Sequence record: MN781580 | Strand: one strand, 5' to 3' | DNA: 64,000 nt | From: Shigella phage KRT47 | Shown here: positions 19,847-62,652 of the stretch, piece after piece | Position numbering within the stretch: the stretch's first letter is position 1 | How the letters are laid out: each line of letters starts with the position of its first letter | Notes under the pieces: model-generated | Seen by the model: the letters and a program-made list of their open reading frames with translations, nothing else | Database searches by the model: none | What the model was told of the DNA's origin: nothing | Position numbers and translations under genes: made by a program

Positions 19847-21273
19847 TAAAATTTTAATTCATTTGCCAAAGCATCTAACTGAGCTCGAGTGGATTCATTT
19901 CTTTGATAGCGATTCTGCTCAGCCTGAATCTGTTGTGAACCTGCTACTTCGTTCACTTCAGTTGGAGTAGAATCTTGTTCAATTTCTACCCATTTCTGAT
20001 TTCCCTTTTGAACACCCATCAAAAACTTATTCCACTTATTCTTATCGCCATATCGTGATTTGATTTGCTTAATGAGTTGTTGTTCAGCAGCTGCTAGCTC
20101 CTCGGTTTCAATGACCGCAAGCATAAAATCAGCTGTTGCTGGAAGACCAGCAGATTCTGCAATATCGCTCATGTTAACATCGGAAGAGTCCCAAGCTTGT
20201 TTACCGACCTGTGCTGCAGTCCAAAGAACAGTTTCGGTTTCAACAGCCAGAGCACGCAATTCCTCTGCAATAGCTTTAACAGTTGTGTAACTATTTTCTG
20301 AATAAACTCTGATGCGGCAAGATTTACAAATACCTAGATAGTCGACAATAATGATTGTTGGAACAAAATTCTTCTTGAGCTTCAATTCATTCAAGAGAGA
20401 CCTGAATGTGTTAGCGTCTGCTCCACCAGTAGGATACTGTTTAACGATTAAACGACCAAGGGTAGATTTCTCACGCCATTTTTCCATTTTTCCTTTATAT
20501 TCAGCGTAAGAAATATGCCCATCATCAATGTCATCAAGAGAAACATCAAGCATGTTAGCGTCAATACGCTTAGCACAGACTTCTTCTGCCATTTCCATGG
20601 AAATGTAAAGAACATTATGTCCGAGCTGTAAATAATCTGCTGCTAATGAACACAGACCTAATGATTTACCAACGTTAACGCCAGCCATTAAAACGTTCAG
20701 TGTTCCAGTCTCAGCTCCGCCTTTAGTAATTTTGTTTAGAATTCTGAGTTTAAATGGAACTTTACGAGCTTTATTCATATAAGATAGCCAACGTGCTTCA
20801 TAGTCATCCATCCAATCATGACCAACGTAACTATCAAATGAAATAGATAATGCTTGCCGCATGATGTCAGGAATAGCACCAACATCCGGCATTTTCTTAT
20901 TTCGTTTTTCCGGAGGAAGCTCAGCATTAGTTTGAATTTCGATTATTTTAGACGTAGCATTAAACATCGCCCTTTGCTGAACATATTTTTCTGTTTCTTT
21001 TACTAACCAGCTGTGGTCTTCTGGAGAATCAGCCAGTTTTGAAATAAGTGTTTTTACACCAGAATATTCTGTTTCAGTAAATGAACTATTTTCTAATGCA
21101 ACATTTAACGCATTAATAGATGGAACGCTATGATACTCATTGACATGAGATTTAATTAATTTGAATGTATTTTTAGCTGGACCACTTTCAAAATATTCTG
21201 AATCCATATATGGCCAAACTTTTGAAAAATAAGCTTGATCAAATATAAGATGAGAAAGAATAATTTCTACCAC
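19846..21273 (-). CDS. 41: Replicative DNA helicase (DnaB-like), 475 aa, GTG start
   Basis: Walker A GVNVGKS and RecA-like core; AAGGAG SD 4 nt before GTG at 21271-21273. Confidence 0.9.
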   Translation of the reverse strand: MVEIILSHLIFDQAYFSKVWPYMDSEYFESGPAKNTFKLIKSHVNEYHSVPSINALNVALENSSFTETEYSGVKTLISKLADSPEDHSWLVKETEKYVQQRAMFNATSKIIEIQTNAELPPEKRNKKMPDVGAIPDIMRQALSISFDSYVGHDWMDDYEARWLSYMNKARKVPFKLRILNKITKGGAETGTLNVLMAGVNVGKSLGLCSLAADYLQLGHNVLYISMEMAEEVCAKRIDANMLDVSLDDIDDGHISYAEYKGKMEKWREKSTLGRLIVKQYPTGGADANTFRSLLNELKLKKNFVPTIIIVDYLGICKSCRIRVYSENSYTTVKAIAEELRALAVETETVLWTAAQVGKQAWDSSDVNMSDIAESAGLPATADFMLAVIETEELAAAEQQLIKQIKSRYGDKNKWNKFLMGVQKGNQKWVEIEQDSTPTEVNEVAGSQQIQAEQNRYQRNESTRAQLDALANELKF

Positions 21274-40602: not shown

Positions 40603-41073
40603 TTAATCATGTGTCCACACCCCATCGGTATTTGACCAAAGTCGCTGATTATCTGATCCTCGCCACAGCTTTTTAGTCGGAAGATTTTTCTCATACTTCC
40701 CATCAATAATAACATCAACATATTTAAGCATTTCTAGTTGTTTAATATCTTCAAACTTATATCCTGTCCACAACCAAATGCTTTTATTGGGATAAAGATT
40801 TTTAATAGTTTGAACCACAGAGTGAATCACGTCTCTGTTATCAGGATAAAGAGGGTCACCTCCGGTTATAGTTAATCCTTCTATATAATCATTATTCAAA
40901 CACTGAATCAGTTTTTCTAATGTCTCTCCGGTGAATGGAACGCCATTTCTAGCGTTCCATGTTGATTTATTATAACACCCTTCACATTTATGCAAACAAC
41001 CTGTAACGAAAAGAACGACCCTGCAACCAGGGCCATTCACAAAATCACAGGGATAAAATCTATCGTAATTCAT
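40603..41073 (-). CDS. nrdG: Anaerobic ribonucleotide reductase activating protein (radical SAM), 156 aa
   Basis: Radical-SAM cysteine cluster CLHKCEGC; ATGA overlap with nrdD. Confidence 0.85.
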   Translation of the reverse strand: MNYDRFYPCDFVNGPGCRVVLFVTGCLHKCEGCYNKSTWNARNGVPFTGETLEKLIQCLNNDYIEGLTITGGDPLYPDNRDVIHSVVQTIKNLYPNKSIWLWTGYKFEDIKQLEMLKYVDVIIDGKYEKNLPTKKLWRGSDNQRLWSNTDGVWTHD

Positions 41074-42887
41074 TGGTGTTTAACCCTATGCATGATTTCT
41101 TTATTTTTACCGAGATTAAATCCGCGCTCGTTCGGATTTCCCAAATAACCACATGTTCTTCTTATGGTATTCATCTTTTTAGGATCAGTTTCTCCACAAA
41201 TAGAACAAACAAATCCGTTTTCAGTAGGAGTCATTTCATGGGTACTTCCACATGTAAAACATTTATCTACTGGCATATTAACACCAAAATAATCTAAATG
41301 TTGTGCAGCATAATCCCATACGGCCTCAAGACCTTTTAAGTTATTTTTCATATCAGGAAGTTCAACATAAGAAATGTGACCACCTGTCGCAATGAAATGA
41401 TATGGCGCTTCACGAGAAATCTTTTCAAACGGAGTAATATTTTCTTCTACTGAAACATGGAAACTGTTAGTGTACCAGCCTTTATCGGTAACATCTTTTA
41501 CACTTCCATATTTTTCTGTATCAAGTTTACAGAAGCGATAACAAAGGTTTTCAGCAGGAGTCGAATATAAACTAAAAGCAAATCCAGTTCTTTCAGTCCA
41601 CTGTTTAAGATGAGCATTCATTTTAGTTAAAATTTCTCGTCCAATATCACGACCGACAAGAATATTCAATTCGTGAATACCAATGTATCCTAAAGACACT
41701 GAACTTCTACCGTTTTTAAATAACTCAATTATGTCGTCATCAGGTTTAAGACGAACCCCGAATGCACCTTCTTGGTAAAGAATAGGAGCAACAGTAGCTT
41801 TAACTCCTTTTAAGGAACTAATTCTACACATCAAAGCTTCAAAACATAAATCCATTCGTTCATTGAATAATTCAGCAAATTTCTGTTCATTGAACTGTGT
41901 TCCAATATAAGAATCTAACGCGATGCGAGGAAGATTCAGTGTTACAACACCAAGATTATTACGTCCATCAAGAATTTCATTACCAGTCGAATCTTTCCAT
42001 ACGCTCAAGAAACTACGGCATCCCATCGGAGAAACAGGAACAGATGAACCAGTGATAGCTTTATTGTTCTTAGCTGAAATAATATCAGGATACATCCTTT
42101 TGCTTGCACACTCTAGAGCAAGTTGCTTAATGTCGTAATTCGGATCGTCTTTATAAAGATTAACGCCTTCTTCAACGAACATAACAAGCTTAGGGAAAAT
42201 AGGAGTTATTCCATCACGACCAAGACCTTTAATACGATTTTTCAGAATTGCTTTCTGAATCATTCGTTCAGTCCAGTCAGTTCCCGTACCAAATGTAATT
42301 GTTACAAAAGGCGTTTGTCCGTTTGAACTAAAGAGAGTATTTACTTCATATTCATAAGCTTGGAATGCATCGTATACGTCTTTTTCTGTTTTAGATTGAG
42401 CATAATTCAACGCATCAGCGATTTGCCATTTTTCTGCATCCTCAATATGTTTTGCATAGGTGCGTTTAACATAAGGAGAAAGTACTTTATCTACATTCGC
42501 AAAAGTCGTTCCGCCATATTGATGGGAAGCAACTTGCGCAGTAATTTGTGCCATAATTGCAGTAGCAACGCCAATTGATTTAGGAGTTTCAATCTGTGCA
42601 TTACCAAGCTTAAATCCGTTCTCAAGCATTCCTTTTAAATCTACTAAACAGCAATTAGTAAATGGAAGAGCAGGGGAATAATCAATATCATGGAAATGAA
42701 TAATTCCGCTTTCATGCGCTTTCATAATAAAAGACGGGACCATATTTTTGGCAATGTGTTTAGACACAATACCAGCCATAAGGTCCCGTTGAGTTGGAAA
42801 AACACGAGAATCTTTATTAGCATTCTCGTTTAAAAGGTCTTTATTAGTTTTATGAATCAATCCTTCAATTTCTTTTTCAATTGTCAT
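41070..42887 (-). CDS. nrdD: Anaerobic ribonucleotide reductase (glycyl radical enzyme), 605 aa, intron-free
   Basis: Single 605-aa ORF with C-terminal zinc ribbon and glycyl-radical region (CGYLG). Confidence 0.9.
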   Translation of the reverse strand: MTIEKEIEGLIHKTNKDLLNENANKDSRVFPTQRDLMAGIVSKHIAKNMVPSFIMKAHESGIIHFHDIDYSPALPFTNCCLVDLKGMLENGFKLGNAQIETPKSIGVATAIMAQITAQVASHQYGGTTFANVDKVLSPYVKRTYAKHIEDAEKWQIADALNYAQSKTEKDVYDAFQAYEYEVNTLFSSNGQTPFVTITFGTGTDWTERMIQKAILKNRIKGLGRDGITPIFPKLVMFVEEGVNLYKDDPNYDIKQLALECASKRMYPDIISAKNNKAITGSSVPVSPMGCRSFLSVWKDSTGNEILDGRNNLGVVTLNLPRIALDSYIGTQFNEQKFAELFNERMDLCFEALMCRISSLKGVKATVAPILYQEGAFGVRLKPDDDIIELFKNGRSSVSLGYIGIHELNILVGRDIGREILTKMNAHLKQWTERTGFAFSLYSTPAENLCYRFCKLDTEKYGSVKDVTDKGWYTNSFHVSVEENITPFEKISREAPYHFIATGGHISYVELPDMKNNLKGLEAVWDYAAQHLDYFGVNMPVDKCFTCGSTHEMTPTENGFVCSICGETDPKKMNTIRRTCGYLGNPNERGFNLGKNKEIMHRVKHQ

Positions 42888-43853: not shown

Positions 43854-43976
43854 GTCCCATCTCCATATCAATTAAGTCATTTATTGTTGGTTCATTATAT
43901 ACTGTTTCTTCATCAGTGTAAACCGGTTCTTCCGGCTCTGGCTCTACAGTTTCCCATCTAGCCGCCCACCAGGGTT

Positions 43977-44297
43977 TTATAGCGTAATCCATTCTCGTAC
44001 TGTCTGAGTTACTACACGTTCATGGGGCTCGACTAGTTCAACAGTCGGAACTGCATAATACCAGTCAGAATGATAAGAACCTGACCGAGATTCATTTACA
44101 GCCACATGTACATTATGTTTTGGACTAAAGTAAACACACTGACGATATTGACATTTACCATCTTGCACCCAGTCTTCTATTTCGACAGGTTTAAGATAAT
44201 CGGAAAAATCGAAATCATAGTTTTCCGAAAATGCATCATGGTCTTCAATGATTTCGCTCAGAACTGCATCAACATCTAATTTATTTTCAATAGTCAT
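43977..44297 (-). CDS. Hypothetical acidic protein, 106 aa
   Basis: ATG at 44295-44297. Confidence 0.5.
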   Translation of the reverse strand: MTIENKLDVDAVLSEIIEDHDAFSENYDFDFSDYLKPVEIEDWVQDGKCQYRQCVYFSPKHNVHVAVNESRSGSYHSDWYYAVPTVELVEPHERVVTQTVREWITL

Positions 44298-59707: not shown

Positions 59708-59986
59708 TTATTCTTTAAATCTAATCAATTTATTCATAGACTTTGAAACTTCTGCACGAACCTCATGTAGGTTTTTGAGCTGTTCAAGACGCTGCTCATA
59801 GTAAGCAATTTCATCTTCTTCGAGACAGTCCTGTGAATCTTCTTTAAGATAACGTGCATAGTCCTGGAAAGCTTTACGGACTACTTCCTGGAAGTCATCA
59901 AGACTTTGAATTTTCTTAGGAGCAACAGATACACGACGAGGGGCAGTATAATACTCATAACCAAACCCTGCGCTTAATTGAGCCAT
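59708..59986 (-). CDS. Hypothetical protein, about 92 aa
   Basis: ATG at 59984-59986 with GAGGAAAAA SD (TAATG overlap); track extends upstream. Confidence 0.45.
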
Positions 59987-60252
59987 TAATATTTTTCCTC
60001 TGGTTGGAACACAGCACGACAAGCCCACATACTGGCTTCTTTGAGTTTCGTTTTAGCAATAGTTAACTGATCGAGGCTTTCAGCATAATTCTTTGCGAAT
60101 TCACAGTCTTCACAATTATTTAGTGCTTCCCAGAATTCATCATATAAAGCATCAAAGATAAGTCCCAAACGAACTTCAGCGTCTTTGATAGCATTCACTT
60201 TACCGATTTTCTCTTCAGTGTGCGGCTTATAACCTTTAATGTCTTCAATCAT
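59986..60252 (-). CDS. Hypothetical protein, about 88 aa
   Basis: ATG at 60250-60252 with GAGGAAG SD; track extends upstream. Confidence 0.45.
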
Positions 60253-60466
60253 ATTTGACTTCCTCACCAGTACATAAATCATATTCAACTAAACGAATAG
60301 GTTCATGAATGCCATATCCTTGAACAGAAATTTCTGTCGTAGGATAAATTCCATCAATATCACCCATATTCCATGCTTCATTAAATTGTTGTTCGCCTGA
60401 ATTACTAAACCATTCGGCGAAAGCATTTAGCACATCTTTAGAACCTTCAATAATTATCTTTGCCAT
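60245..60466 (-). CDS. Small hypothetical protein, 73 aa
   Basis: ATG at 60464-60466. Confidence 0.45.
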   Translation of the reverse strand: MAKIIIEGSKDVLNAFAEWFSNSGEQQFNEAWNMGDIDGIYPTTEISVQGYGIHEPIRLVEYDLCTGEEVKYD

Positions 60467-60828
60467 TACAAACTCTCAGTAAAGGTACGAGCGATAACGT
60501 CGCGCTGCTGTTCCGGAGTCAGAGAGTTAAAGCGAACTGCATAACCGGATACACGGATGGTCAGCTGCGGATATTTTTCCGGATGCTTAACTGCATCTTC
60601 CAGAGTTTCGCGACGCAGAACGTTAACGTTCAGGTGTTGACCACCTTCAATTTTAACTGTAGGCTGTGGTTCAATTTCAATTTCACGGGCATGCAAACCG
60701 TAGAAAATTTCTGGGTCTACAAAAGAGTCCTCTTTAAAGGTTTTAGAGACAATAATTCGTGCTTGAATACCATCTTCAAAATAAATAGTACCTTTATGCG
60801 TGCCTTCAAGAATTTGATATGCTTTCAT
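60466..60828 (-). CDS. Autonomous glycyl-radical cofactor (GrcA/YfiD-like), 120 aa
   Basis: C-terminus ...[39 protein letters not shown]... matches enterobacterial GrcA as recalled; coding DNA there is visibly GC-richer. Confidence 0.8.
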
Positions 60829-60835
60829 ATAAACC

Positions 60836-61165
60836 TCAATTAGAAAATAAATTTATCCAAGATTGTTCTTTAATTAAAAATGGCTCAGAATCATATGCCA
60901 TTAAACTTTGGGTGATTAGTCCTTTAAAAGGTCCATCAATAAATTCCATGGTAAAATATGGAATTTTATTCATTAATCTTGCATTAGGAGCAGTGCACAA
61001 AACTCTGCATCCTTTGAATACGCCTTTTTGTAATTTGTATTGCTTGGGATAAAATTCGCTCAAAATGTTATTATTTGCCAAAATTTCAAAATGATTCACC
61101 AATTTATTTTTAATAGTTTTTGGCGAAAAATAAAGATATTCGAAAAGCTGTGTGTCTGTCATCAT
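60836..61165 (-). CDS. Hypothetical protein, 109 aa
   Basis: ATG at 61163-61165, ATGA overlap. Confidence 0.5.
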
Positions 61166-61704
61166 TGCATTCCAATCACAAAAAATTGAGGACGAACTGT
61201 TTCACCTGTTTCAGCATTATAGCTTCGACAACAGTGTTGCACAGTTTCAATATGAATATCGTAAATTTTATCCATATCAGGAGATTTGACAGGCTCATCA
61301 ATTATATACAAAATTCGCGAAAGCGATAAACCTCTGAACTTGCTTCCTTTATTACCAATAAAACTGCGCACAGAATCAGTAAATAAACGAAAACGTATAT
61401 CATCATTAGAATAACGCGAAAATTCCTTTTTAATGTTATTTGCAGAAATTTTAGCGTAAGCTGAAGTATTAGAAAGAACGATAACTGTTCCGCCATCATA
61501 CAACCAATTAGCAGCAAAGTTAGTCACAGCAATTGATTTACCGGATTGACGTCCACCATCTAGTCGAAGTGTGCAATACTGTTTAAGTAATTCTTCAAAT
61601 GGCGGGATATATTCGTTTTTACAAATTTCTTCTACTCTAGCATCAGAATGGTGTGTAAAAGCATTCATCAGGGATAGATAAGGACCAGTTAAAAATGTTC
61701 TCAT
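61162..61704 (-). CDS. Small P-loop NTPase, 180 aa
   Basis: Walker A GGRQSGKS; ATG at 61702-61704. Confidence 0.55.
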   Translation of the reverse strand: MRTFLTGPYLSLMNAFTHHSDARVEEICKNEYIPPFEELLKQYCTLRLDGGRQSGKSIAVTNFAANWLYDGGTVIVLSNTSAYAKISANNIKKEFSRYSNDDIRFRLFTDSVRSFIGNKGSKFRGLSLSRILYIIDEPVKSPDMDKIYDIHIETVQHCCRSYNAETGETVRPQFFVIGMQ

Positions 61705-61844
61705 TTCTTCTCTCTAAGTTTGGGCCATTCCATGGCGCATGAATTGTCCATTTCTGTATTTACCCATTACCGCACTCAGGCTCGACCTTATTACAGGTTG
61801 GCGGGAATCCCTCACAGAATCATGAGGTCCAGGTTGTTCCCATA

Positions 61845-62318
61845 TTATTTGAACGATTTAACGTACTGAATAGAACCTTTACTATTTACAAAGGCAATTT
61901 TACCATTTTTATTATACATGGTAGCAGTACGTTGATAGCCATAAGTTTGTTTACCAGATTGATAACCAACTAATGCAAAATTATCTTCACCCATTTTATT
62001 CTGTTTAGCGCGAATGCGTTCATGACCATGTGCCATAAGAACCTTAGCGTCGCCAGTTGCAATGGATCTACGAGTTTTTTCATCTTCAACTGTATTAACA
62101 AAGTCGTCAAATGAATCAAATTTAGCATGAGATTTATTATACAGTTTTCCATCTACTGCATAATTATATCCCTGTACATCCATCTCAACTTCTGTACCAT
62201 CATCCAATACAGCAGTGATTTTTTGACCTTTTTTAAATTTCAAAAGATCAGTAAAAGATTCAGCAATAATTTGAGAATTAATAGCTGCTTCAGTAATAAA
62301 TTCTTGATATGTTTTCAT
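61845..62318 (-). CDS. Internal (capsid-packaged) protein with capsid-targeting sequence, 157 aa
   Basis: N-terminus MKTYQEFITE matches the T4 internal-protein targeting sequence; position next to e. Confidence 0.65.
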   Translation of the reverse strand: MKTYQEFITEAAINSQIIAESFTDLLKFKKGQKITAVLDDGTEVEMDVQGYNYAVDGKLYNKSHAKFDSFDDFVNTVEDEKTRRSIATGDAKVLMAHGHERIRAKQNKMGEDNFALVGYQSGKQTYGYQRTATMYNKNGKIAFVNSKGSIQYVKSFK

Positions 62319-62334
62319 GTGTATCCTTTAATTT

Positions 62335-62652
62335 TTATTCTTTAGGGAAGTTTTTAGAATATGCATCATAAAGCTTATTTCCAATACGGCGGAAAACTCT
62401 AGCAGCAAAACGATTTTCTGGGTTTTTAATCATGATTTGCATCATATAAGTACCCGCGTCAGAAAGAGCTTCTTCATAGTACCCGTTAATTTCTTTAAGA
62501 GTCCTACGTTTACCACCAGGACCATCAACAGTGATTTTCCATTTACCTGTAGAAGTGCGACTTGGCGGCTCAACTTGTTCAATCCAGATATAACCGCCTT
62601 CTACACGTTGTCCTGCAGCAGATTCTGCAATAAATTCTTTATACGTTTTCAT
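62335..62652 (-). CDS. Internal (capsid-packaged) protein with capsid-targeting sequence, 105 aa
   Basis: N-terminus MKTYKEFIAE; basic protein. Confidence 0.65.
   Translation of the reverse strand: MKTYKEFIAESAAGQRVEGGYIWIEQVEPPSRTSTGKWKITVDGPGGKRRTLKEINGYYEEALSDAGTYMMQIMIKNPENRFAARVFRRIGNKLYDAYSKNFPKE

Follow-up and report, generated by a model that had tools for sequence, protein, structure and literature searches.

The window analysed here, the whole 64-kb stretch of phage DNA, carries a small open reading frame (ORF) whose protein product is 100% identical to Vs.6 (Y06I) of phage T4 and whose DNA is 98.3% identical to the T4 vs.6 gene (Table 1). The ORF starts with ATG, and its TAA stop codon shares bases with the ATG that starts vs.5, the 73-aa gene downstream, in the arrangement TAATG. 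The order of the surrounding genes (e, ip, vs.8, vs.7, vs.6, vs.5, vs.4, vs.3, regB, vs.1, vs) is that of annotated relatives, phage AR1 included. The 2.1 kb around vs.6 are 96-97% identical to many T4-like phages of Escherichia, Shigella and Yersinia, and 489 phage records span at least 80% of this neighborhood. Judged by sequence, the ORF is the orthologue of T4 vs.6 and the genome is that of a Tequatrovirus. The initial annotation had stated that T4 is known to carry a comparable gene; T4 does carry one, but it is more than comparable, as the gene in the window is T4's vs.6 itself. The two phages share the neighborhood vs.8-vs.7-vs.6-vs.5-vs.4-vs.3-regB as well as the identical protein and differ in their alleles: in the T4 record the allele is CGT and codon 118 reads GAA, whereas the window has the K-12-type allele, with CGC at the polymorphic Arg codon.

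Table 1. Features of the vs.6 locus, and the two nrd genes of the same window.
Feature	Position	Strand	Description	Basis
vs.6 ORF	60466..60828	(-)	120 aa + stop; GrcA/YfiD-type autonomous glycyl radical cofactor	Sequence and homology
Ribosome-binding site of vs.6, GAGG	60834..60837	(-)	5 nt 5' of the vs.6 ATG; overlaps the vs.7 stop codon	Sequence
Phage-type 5' half	60651..60828	(-)	GC 0.34, GC3 0.22; residues 1-60, diverged GrcA N-terminal region	Profile comparison
Host-identical tract	60476..60650	(-)	Gene nt 179-353; identical to E. coli grcA over all 175 nt	DNA comparison
Codon GGT for Gly95	60544..60546	(-)	Predicted glycyl-radical site in RVSG95YAV; corresponds to GrcA G102 and PflB G734	
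3' junction	60464..60475	(-)	Last sense codons GAG AGT TTG; E. coli GAA AGC CTG	
nrdG	40603-41073			
nrdD	41070-42887			

The gene is bounded by its neighbors on both sides and codes for a small standalone protein of the ~14 kDa class, without the catalytic barrel of pyruvate formate-lyase (PFL). The Pfam model Gly_radical (PF01228) aligns with residues 61-101 (E=2.8e-18). Residues 61-120, including the radical loop RVSG95YAV, are identical to residues 68-127 of E. coli GrcA, which bears out the initial reading of the last ~60 residues as a GrcA/YfiD C-terminus. Among solved structures, the best match is YfiD (PDB 6OWR, E=8.6e-42), followed by residues 697-759 of PFL (E=5e-26). Vs.6 thus has the same small standalone architecture as E. 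coli GrcA/YfiD, with 60 identical C-terminal amino acids encoded over 175 identical nucleotides and a homologous N-terminal half, but it is 7 aa shorter and its N-terminal half is only ~30% identical. With the C-terminal domain of PflB (697-759), the part that is lost when oxygen cleaves the enzyme, Vs.6 shares fold and motif over its residues 58-120 (~80% amino-acid and 79.5% DNA identity there; 57% in an alignment of 106 aa with the PflB C-terminus), the difference being that Vs.6 has no barrel. On the NCBIfam equivalog model for GrcA (TIGR04365) it scores 153.3 bits, under the cutoff of 170 and against 234 for E. coli GrcA, because its N-terminus has diverged; despite this score, GrcA is the name that RefSeq gives to the phage proteins. 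The domain with its radical loop, the small standalone size and the homology of the N-terminal half (see below) are all those of the GrcA/YfiD family (IPR011140, TIGR04365).

A promoter and terminator scan of 59900-61900 gave counts no higher than the shuffled expectation. vs.6 belongs to a phage early transcription unit and is not expressed from a regulated promoter such as that of host grcA. At the other end of the gene, the GAGAG formed by the last codons may act as a putative ribosome-binding site for vs.5. The three differences from E. coli grcA at this 3' junction are all synonymous, and the same sites are variable among phages.

The host-identical tract and its source

The tract that matches E. 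coli grcA codes for the whole PFL-like glycyl-radical domain, from part of I60 through E61 to E118; over the last 185 nt of vs.6, 182 are those of the K-12-type allele of grcA. A match was found in each of the 5,426 complete genomes of E. coli, with an identity of at least 99% in 3,686 and of 100% in some. The gene for PFL itself, pflB, was considered as a donor and rejected, its DNA being 79.5% identical to the tract vs 100% for grcA. The claim that the radical-domain DNA is host-derived is upheld, with grcA as its source. The 3' half of vs.6 is 98.4% identical to E. coli grcA. For grcA from 80 other species of Enterobacterales and Pasteurellaceae the median identity is 84%; this sample consists of the 80 loci nearest to E. 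coli GrcA among the matches listed and is thin as a survey of donors outside Escherichia.

Identity at the level of codons leads to the same source. Where the amino acid is the same and the codon degenerate, vs.6 and E. coli grcA use the same codon in 57 of 60 cases; the corresponding figure is 35-58% for other phage lineages that code for nearly the same peptide and 57-77% for grcA of Citrobacter, Salmonella and Klebsiella (57-72% for the last two alone), which excludes a chance identity. By DNA comparison, the donor of the glycyl-radical-domain DNA in vs.6 is E. coli grcA.

Base composition changes along with identity. The GC content rises from 0.344 in the 5' half to 0.500 in the 3' half, and GC3 from 0.217 to 0.45. 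Positions 60469-60648 form the GC-richest 180-nt window of the entire 64 kb (180-nt windows: mean 0.345, sd 0.040). The GC shift described at the outset is thus real, but the limits proposed for it, ~60470-60680, reach ~30 nt beyond the tract at its 5' edge. When the 64 kb were compared with the 5,426 E. coli genomes by megablast, only this tract and a weak match to its paralogue pflB were returned. What lies in vs.6 is a discrete patch of host composition, nearly identical to an extant host allele, between stretches of the gene that are of phage type. Low identity to host grcA and uniform composition across the gene, which the initial annotation had named as arguments against its claim, were both absent on checking.

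The N-terminal half and the age of the phage gene

The N-terminal region of Vs.6 (residues 1-60) is conserved among T4-like phages, and vs.6 was listed in 2006 among the few ORFs of unknown function that are conserved in all six T4-like genomes compared (PMC1524935). Profiles of the N-terminal halves alone, built from 18 T4-like phage sequences and 67 bacterial GrcA, were aligned with hhalign with a probability of 92.4% (E 5e-7, score 35.6, 47 columns, 30% identity); 50 column-shuffled controls scored 10.0 +/- 2.0 and at most 14.1. The motifs AR..V.K, ED..V and RE(V/I) are common to both sets.

Full-length grcA homologues are also present in Karamvirus of the CC31 type, in the Pseudotevenvirus RB43, RB16 and EC-F1, in Slopekvirus, and in KP15-type, jumbo and T5-like phages. 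Those of the CC31-type Karamvirus, RB43/KP15-type, T5-like and jumbo phages have the same length and architecture as vs.6 and a related N-terminal half. The C-terminal halves of the homologues are written in phage codons, with an identity of 70-84% to any of the bacterial grcA sampled, the longest exact run being 29 nt or less in most of them; on these grounds, and unlike vs.6, they carry no recent host patch. The coliphage lineages RB43/RB16 and RB49/JSE are among the lineages that have not been converted. Because related phages join the same N-terminal half to a phage-codon C-terminal half, the full-length gene must be older than the patch. The Glu-Ser-Leu end, which is encoded in codons other than those of E. 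coli, likewise indicates a patch within an existing homologue and not a fusion. As read from these alignments, vs.6 is an old phage homologue of grcA whose 3' half was overwritten by host grcA.

Direction and probable recurrence of the exchange

Within bacteria, the tract region of E. coli grcA has diverged from that of Citrobacter, Salmonella, Klebsiella and Enterobacter to a degree similar to that of the grcA 5' half, while the phage gene shows an abrupt switch at the junction in base composition as well as in identity to E. coli. Since the tract appears native in E. coli and the change is abrupt in the phage, a transfer from host to phage is the economical reading.

In a comparison of the window with RB69-type phages (sequences L007 and L008), the 1.5 kb flanking the gene on each side have an overall identity of 64-68%, which rises to 89.8% in the 5' half of vs.6 and to 98.9-99.4% in the tract. 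With its identity of ~99%, vs 65-80% in the flanks of T4-type and RB69-type phages, the tract is younger than the split between the T4-type and RB69-type genera, which calls for either a second capture or a spread from phage to phage. Both types share one 5' junction, which a single capture followed by phage-to-phage spread would explain equally well.

Alleles of the tract also vary among phages. The K-12-type allele of grcA is carried by the window and AR1, the common CGT allele by T4 and by phage sequences L005, L008 and L184, and the allele of E. coli strain 503025 by phage sequence L181, so that whole-tract haplotypes in phages equal three distinct E. coli alleles exactly. Seventeen variant states, all synonymous, were counted across 17 phage tract sequences. 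The variant states of three other Escherichia alleles all occur (5/5) among these 17, out of 130 possible synonymous states, which has P ~2e-5 under a uniform model that ignores mutational hot spots. Only a small number of polymorphisms are shared, and they occupy degenerate sites, where parallel hot-spot mutation could inflate the allele-sharing signal. Some phage alleles have private changes, which implies that conversion is not so frequent as to erase drift.

A corresponding tract of another origin is found in Jiaodavirus. The Klebsiella phages KPV15, JD18 and PSE-D1 have the same phage-type 5' half followed by a tract with a GC content of 0.56-0.58, which is 96-97% identical to Klebsiella grcA over 165 nt. 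Identity falls to 86-89% when this tract is compared with E. coli or Salmonella, and to 76% with phage relatives that have matching flanks but are unconverted. Five Klebsiella-like alleles, of the K. variicola type or from a metagenome, were available as donors, and the best reached 97%, not 100%. A rare Pro-to-Ser codon is common to JD18 and K. variicola alleles, and the 3' junction is not that of the T4 type but ~18 nt upstream of it. About 128 records contain the Jiaodavirus-type sequence at an identity of at least 95%.

The tract does not simply track the host of isolation: a Tequatrovirus isolated on Yersinia has the E. coli tract (99.4%, vs 83% to Yersinia), and a Jiaodavirus isolated on Salmonella has the Klebsiella tract. 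More than one independent exchange is indicated by the E. coli-type tract of Tequatrovirus and Mosigvirus, the Klebsiella-type tract of Jiaodavirus with its other 3' junction, and the multiple E. coli alleles. From these patterns, it is probable that the tract was re-copied from host to phage more than once.

Enterobacter phage EC-F1, a Pseudotevenvirus, was tried as a third host-matched case and rejected: against the grcA sampled, seven Enterobacter species included, its tract reaches only 82-84% identity and so is not a recent conversion. In RB43/KP15-type phages, the tract has a raised GC3 and host-like residues (LEDAVKH vs LLDAVEH); no donor was found at the nucleotide level among the grcA sampled. 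An old, decayed conversion is possible in these phages.

Function, mechanism and competing explanations

The biochemistry of the T4 protein has been described. According to one published account, the radical is installed on Y06I by the PFL-activating enzyme (PFL-AE), and PFL cleaved by oxygen is rescued (PMC8683613, citing Wagner 2001); there, the radical domain of either YfiD or Y06I is said to bind cleaved PFL and thereby restore its activity (PMC8683613). As the Vs.6 of the window is Y06I at the protein level, these results apply to it directly, and the suggestion that the gene product rescues oxygen-damaged PFL agrees with what the account reports for a 100% identical protein.

Carried over to the window, the published biochemistry means that host PflA, the PFL-activating enzyme, would put a glycyl radical on Gly95 of Vs.6, and that the C-terminal domain would dock into host PflB cut by oxygen at Gly734, where it would stand in for the lost radical domain and restore the conversion of pyruvate to acetyl-CoA and formate. 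Residues 1-60 of YfiD are needed for binding and activation, and the poorly conserved N-terminal half of Vs.6 would aid in both. The benefit to the phage would be a supply of fermentative energy and acetyl-CoA that is kept up in infected enteric cells when they meet oxygen. Conservation of the domain at the protein level would keep the phage and host genes 75-80% identical in DNA over this region, presumably enough for recombination.

The T4 recombination system acting on fragments of host DNA would be the obvious agent of such an exchange. The phage machinery (UvsX/UvsY/gp32), working on fragments from the breakdown of host DNA, could have copied host sequence into vs.6, in a tract bounded on the 5' side by the collapse of similarity in the diverged half and on the 3' side by the overlapping start signals of vs.5. 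Once the tract was identical to that of the host, further exchange would be easy and phage copies would keep re-sampling host alleles; the outcome would be concerted evolution across the virus-host boundary. We hold it likely that Vs.6 is an old phage GrcA serving as a "spare part" for host PFL, with a host-overwritten 3' half and phage copies that re-sample host alleles.

Two other histories of the gene have to be weighed against this one. The sharp boundary of composition and identity at about gene nt 178/179 could mark a single illegitimate capture of a 3' fragment of grcA, fused in frame to an unrelated phage N-terminus, which is how the initial annotation had seen the gene; the weak BLASTP identity in the N-terminal part and the first ~20 residues, left unaligned by the NCBIfam GrcA model, are in line with such an event. 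A fusion is nonetheless very unlikely, since residues 1-60, compared alone, show homology with the N-terminal half of bacterial GrcA (hhalign 92.4%, E 5e-7; score 35.6 vs a shuffled maximum of 14.1), the same N-terminal half is joined to a phage-codon C-terminal half in related phages, and the last three codons keep the E. coli amino acids in different codons. The other history would have one capture in one T4-like ancestor and a spread through Tequatrovirus and Mosigvirus, with shared polymorphisms that arose in parallel, a Klebsiella tract that was an isolated event and no ongoing exchange. It would suit the identical 5' junctions of T4-type and RB69-type phages, the private phage substitutions, and the location of the shared sites at four-fold or two-fold degenerate positions, and T-even phages are generally known to recombine readily with each other. 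Against it stand the recovery of 5/5 host variant states among phage alleles (P ~2e-5), the whole-tract haplotypes that equal three E. coli alleles exactly, and the rare Pro-to-Ser codon in both JD18 and K. variicola; moreover, the capture of an E. coli-type tract leaves the Klebsiella-type tract unexplained. We consider this history unlikely.

Different questions are whether Vs.6 acts on another enzyme and whether the identity reflects transfer at all. The protein could serve the phage anaerobic ribonucleotide reductase rather than host PFL: it could supply NrdD with a spare radical domain, or it could be a substrate of NrdG or modulate it. The window has nrdD and nrdG in the same early region, NrdD likewise carries a glycyl radical and is cut by oxygen, and a role in nucleotide metabolism was a speculation of the 2006 comparative paper (PMC1524935). 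The link to nrdD/nrdG drawn in the initial annotation is not supported by similarity, although both genes are present: Vs.6 has no significant match to the NrdD of the window (BLASTP E=2.7), for which reason its candidacy as an NrdD spare part was rejected, and it matches PflB 697-759 instead, with 57% identity where 106 aa align with the PflB C-terminus, besides being identical to GrcA over 60 aa. Activation of Y06I by PFL-AE and its rescue of cleaved PFL, as given in the published account (PMC8683613), also argue against this role, to which we give very little credence. Alternatively, it might not be recent transfer but selection on the nucleic acid that has kept up nucleotide identity, for example on an mRNA element, for codon optimization at high expression or on a site of recombination or priming. 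The codons of the tract are indeed of the E. coli high-expression type (CTG, CGT, CCG, GGT), and the tract is retained in hundreds of phage genomes. Yet RB43/RB16, RB49/JSE and T5-like phages code for almost the same peptide with 43-58% of codons shared, grcA even of Salmonella and Klebsiella has only 57-72% of its codons in common with E. coli, and codon optimization cannot explain exact matches to the alleles of strains; selection of this kind is the least credible of the explanations considered.

Overwriting of an old phage grcA homologue by host DNA, the reading that we prefer, has a reported counterpart. Intragenic recombination between host and phage, with mosaic GC patches, is said to occur in cyanophage psbA, in work attributed to Zeidner in 2005 and Sullivan in 2006. 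The likeness lies in a phage copy of a host metabolic gene with patches of host-like composition and sequence, implying homologous exchange. vs.6 differs from psbA in the gene, host group and phage involved, in a patch that consists of exact alleles of extant strains and covers one protein domain, and in being carried by a phage that is strictly lytic and breaks down the DNA of its host.

Knowledge of vs.6 and of what its product does biochemically dates from 2001, and the finding in its first form therefore adds little. In the literature searched, which lay outside the 2003 T4 genome review, we found no description of a nucleotide mosaic of vs.6 and grcA or of its recurrence, and an earlier remark is possible, that review being its likeliest place; recurrent conversion from host to phage at vs.6 is, modestly, a new angle. 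It seems somewhat more plausible than otherwise that vs.6 is a standing hot spot, at which the radical half is continually re-copied from the grcA of the main host of the lineage, E. coli for Tequatrovirus and Mosigvirus and Klebsiella for Jiaodavirus. If so, host and phage copies would evolve in concert and the tract would record recent host history, with potential use as a marker of the habitual host of a phage lineage. The match to the host could be an adaptive fit of the spare part to the PflB/PflA pair of the host or a neutral by-product of sequence identity. In either case, the locus, with its parallel in Klebsiella phages, would offer a clean example of recurrent recombination between virulent phages and their hosts at an auxiliary metabolic gene, and a natural system in which the frequency of host-DNA copying by lytic phages could be measured.

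The shared repeat of 175 nt also calls for caution in metagenomics, where it can give rise to chimeric phage-host contigs and false host assignments. One likely case was encountered here: in contig L173, OCHD01000040.1 of metagenome OCHD01, the tract continues into the 3'UTR of E. coli grcA, eamB and a LysR gene, and this probable assembly chimera was left out of the allele counts.

Naming and family score of vs.6

Annotation of vs.6, the phage counterpart of E. coli grcA, is inconsistent across records. The protein encoded at window 60469-60828 (-) scores 153.3 bits against TIGR04365, the NCBIfam GrcA equivalog, for which the curated cutoff is 170. Despite this sub-cutoff score, the vs.6 orthologues in RefSeq phage records are called "autonomous glycyl radical cofactor GrcA", and other records name them pyruvate formate-lyase, 2-ketobutyrate formate-lyase, acetyltransferase, or ribonucleotide reductase subunit.

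Host-like sequence in related phages and in a metagenome contig

In the genus Jiaodavirus, vs.6 is intact in JD18, in PSE-D1, and in the records with a 369-nt match; in Klebsiella phage KPV15 (L028, about 1500-1862), the frame is broken by a 1-nt deletion in the 5' half. The motif LTSEQQ is present in both JD18 Vs.6 and a K. variicola GrcA allele (P0003), and the remaining Jiaodaviruses and most Klebsiella have LTPEQQ at this position. On these protein sequences, the difference is an amino-acid polymorphism common to phage and host.

In the RB43/RB16/EC-F1 and KP15-type phages (L014-L020, L163), GC3 of the vs.6 C-terminal half is 0.42-0.45 vs. 0.25-0.33 upstream. Host-like residue variants are also found in this half: the coliphages read LEDAVKH, and the Klebsiella phages of the KP15 type read LLDAVEH. 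At the DNA level, identity to any sampled grcA is only ~83%, and these C-terminal halves may represent old, decayed conversions, in which host grcA sequence was copied over the phage gene.

In the metagenome contig L173, which is from an RB69-type phage, the vs.6 tract passes directly into the 3'UTR and terminator of E. coli grcA, followed by eamB and a LysR-type gene, over at least 1.7 kb. In the 786 nt of this stretch that were open to comparison, identity to E. coli is 99%. The contig is probably an assembler chimera, joined via the shared 175-nt repeat, although the junction could also be that of a real recombinant. This case shows that the 175-nt repeat common to phage and host is able to mislead both assembly and host assignment.

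Elsewhere in the window, GC reaches at least 0.47 in 180-nt windows only at 20071-20277 and 43902-44112. Neither had a megablast match in E. coli genomes, and they are therefore not further host patches of the vs.6 kind.

Other genes of the window

Features of the window and of the loci compared
Feature	Location	Strand	Description
vs.4	window 59986-60288	(-)	second gene downstream of vs.6; ORF of 100 aa
ORF	window 61845-62318	(-)	between vs.8 and lysozyme gene e
ORF	window 62335-62652	(-)	between vs.8 and lysozyme gene e
nrdG	window 40603-41073	(-)	TIGR02491, 199 bits
nrdD	window 41070-42887	(-)	Pfam NRDD, E=3e-171
JD18 vs.6	L187 301-663		Klebsiella phage JD18; compared with L164/L165
L173	7577-9670		metagenome contig OCHD01000040.1, 170,927 bp

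Both genes are present, and they overlap at stop and start. The phage thus encodes NrdD together with a radical-SAM activase of its own for this enzyme, but no homologue of PflA, the host PFL-activating enzyme.

The two ORFs between vs.8 and e begin with MKTYQEFITEA and MKTYKEFIAES, respectively, and both starts resemble the conserved N-terminal sequence that targets T4-type internal proteins to the capsid; "Ip4" is annotated at the corresponding position in the related phage AR1. The vs.4 product matches the Pfam Acb2/Tad1 hairpin domain (E=1.2e-19), a family of phage sponges against cyclic-nucleotide immune signals.
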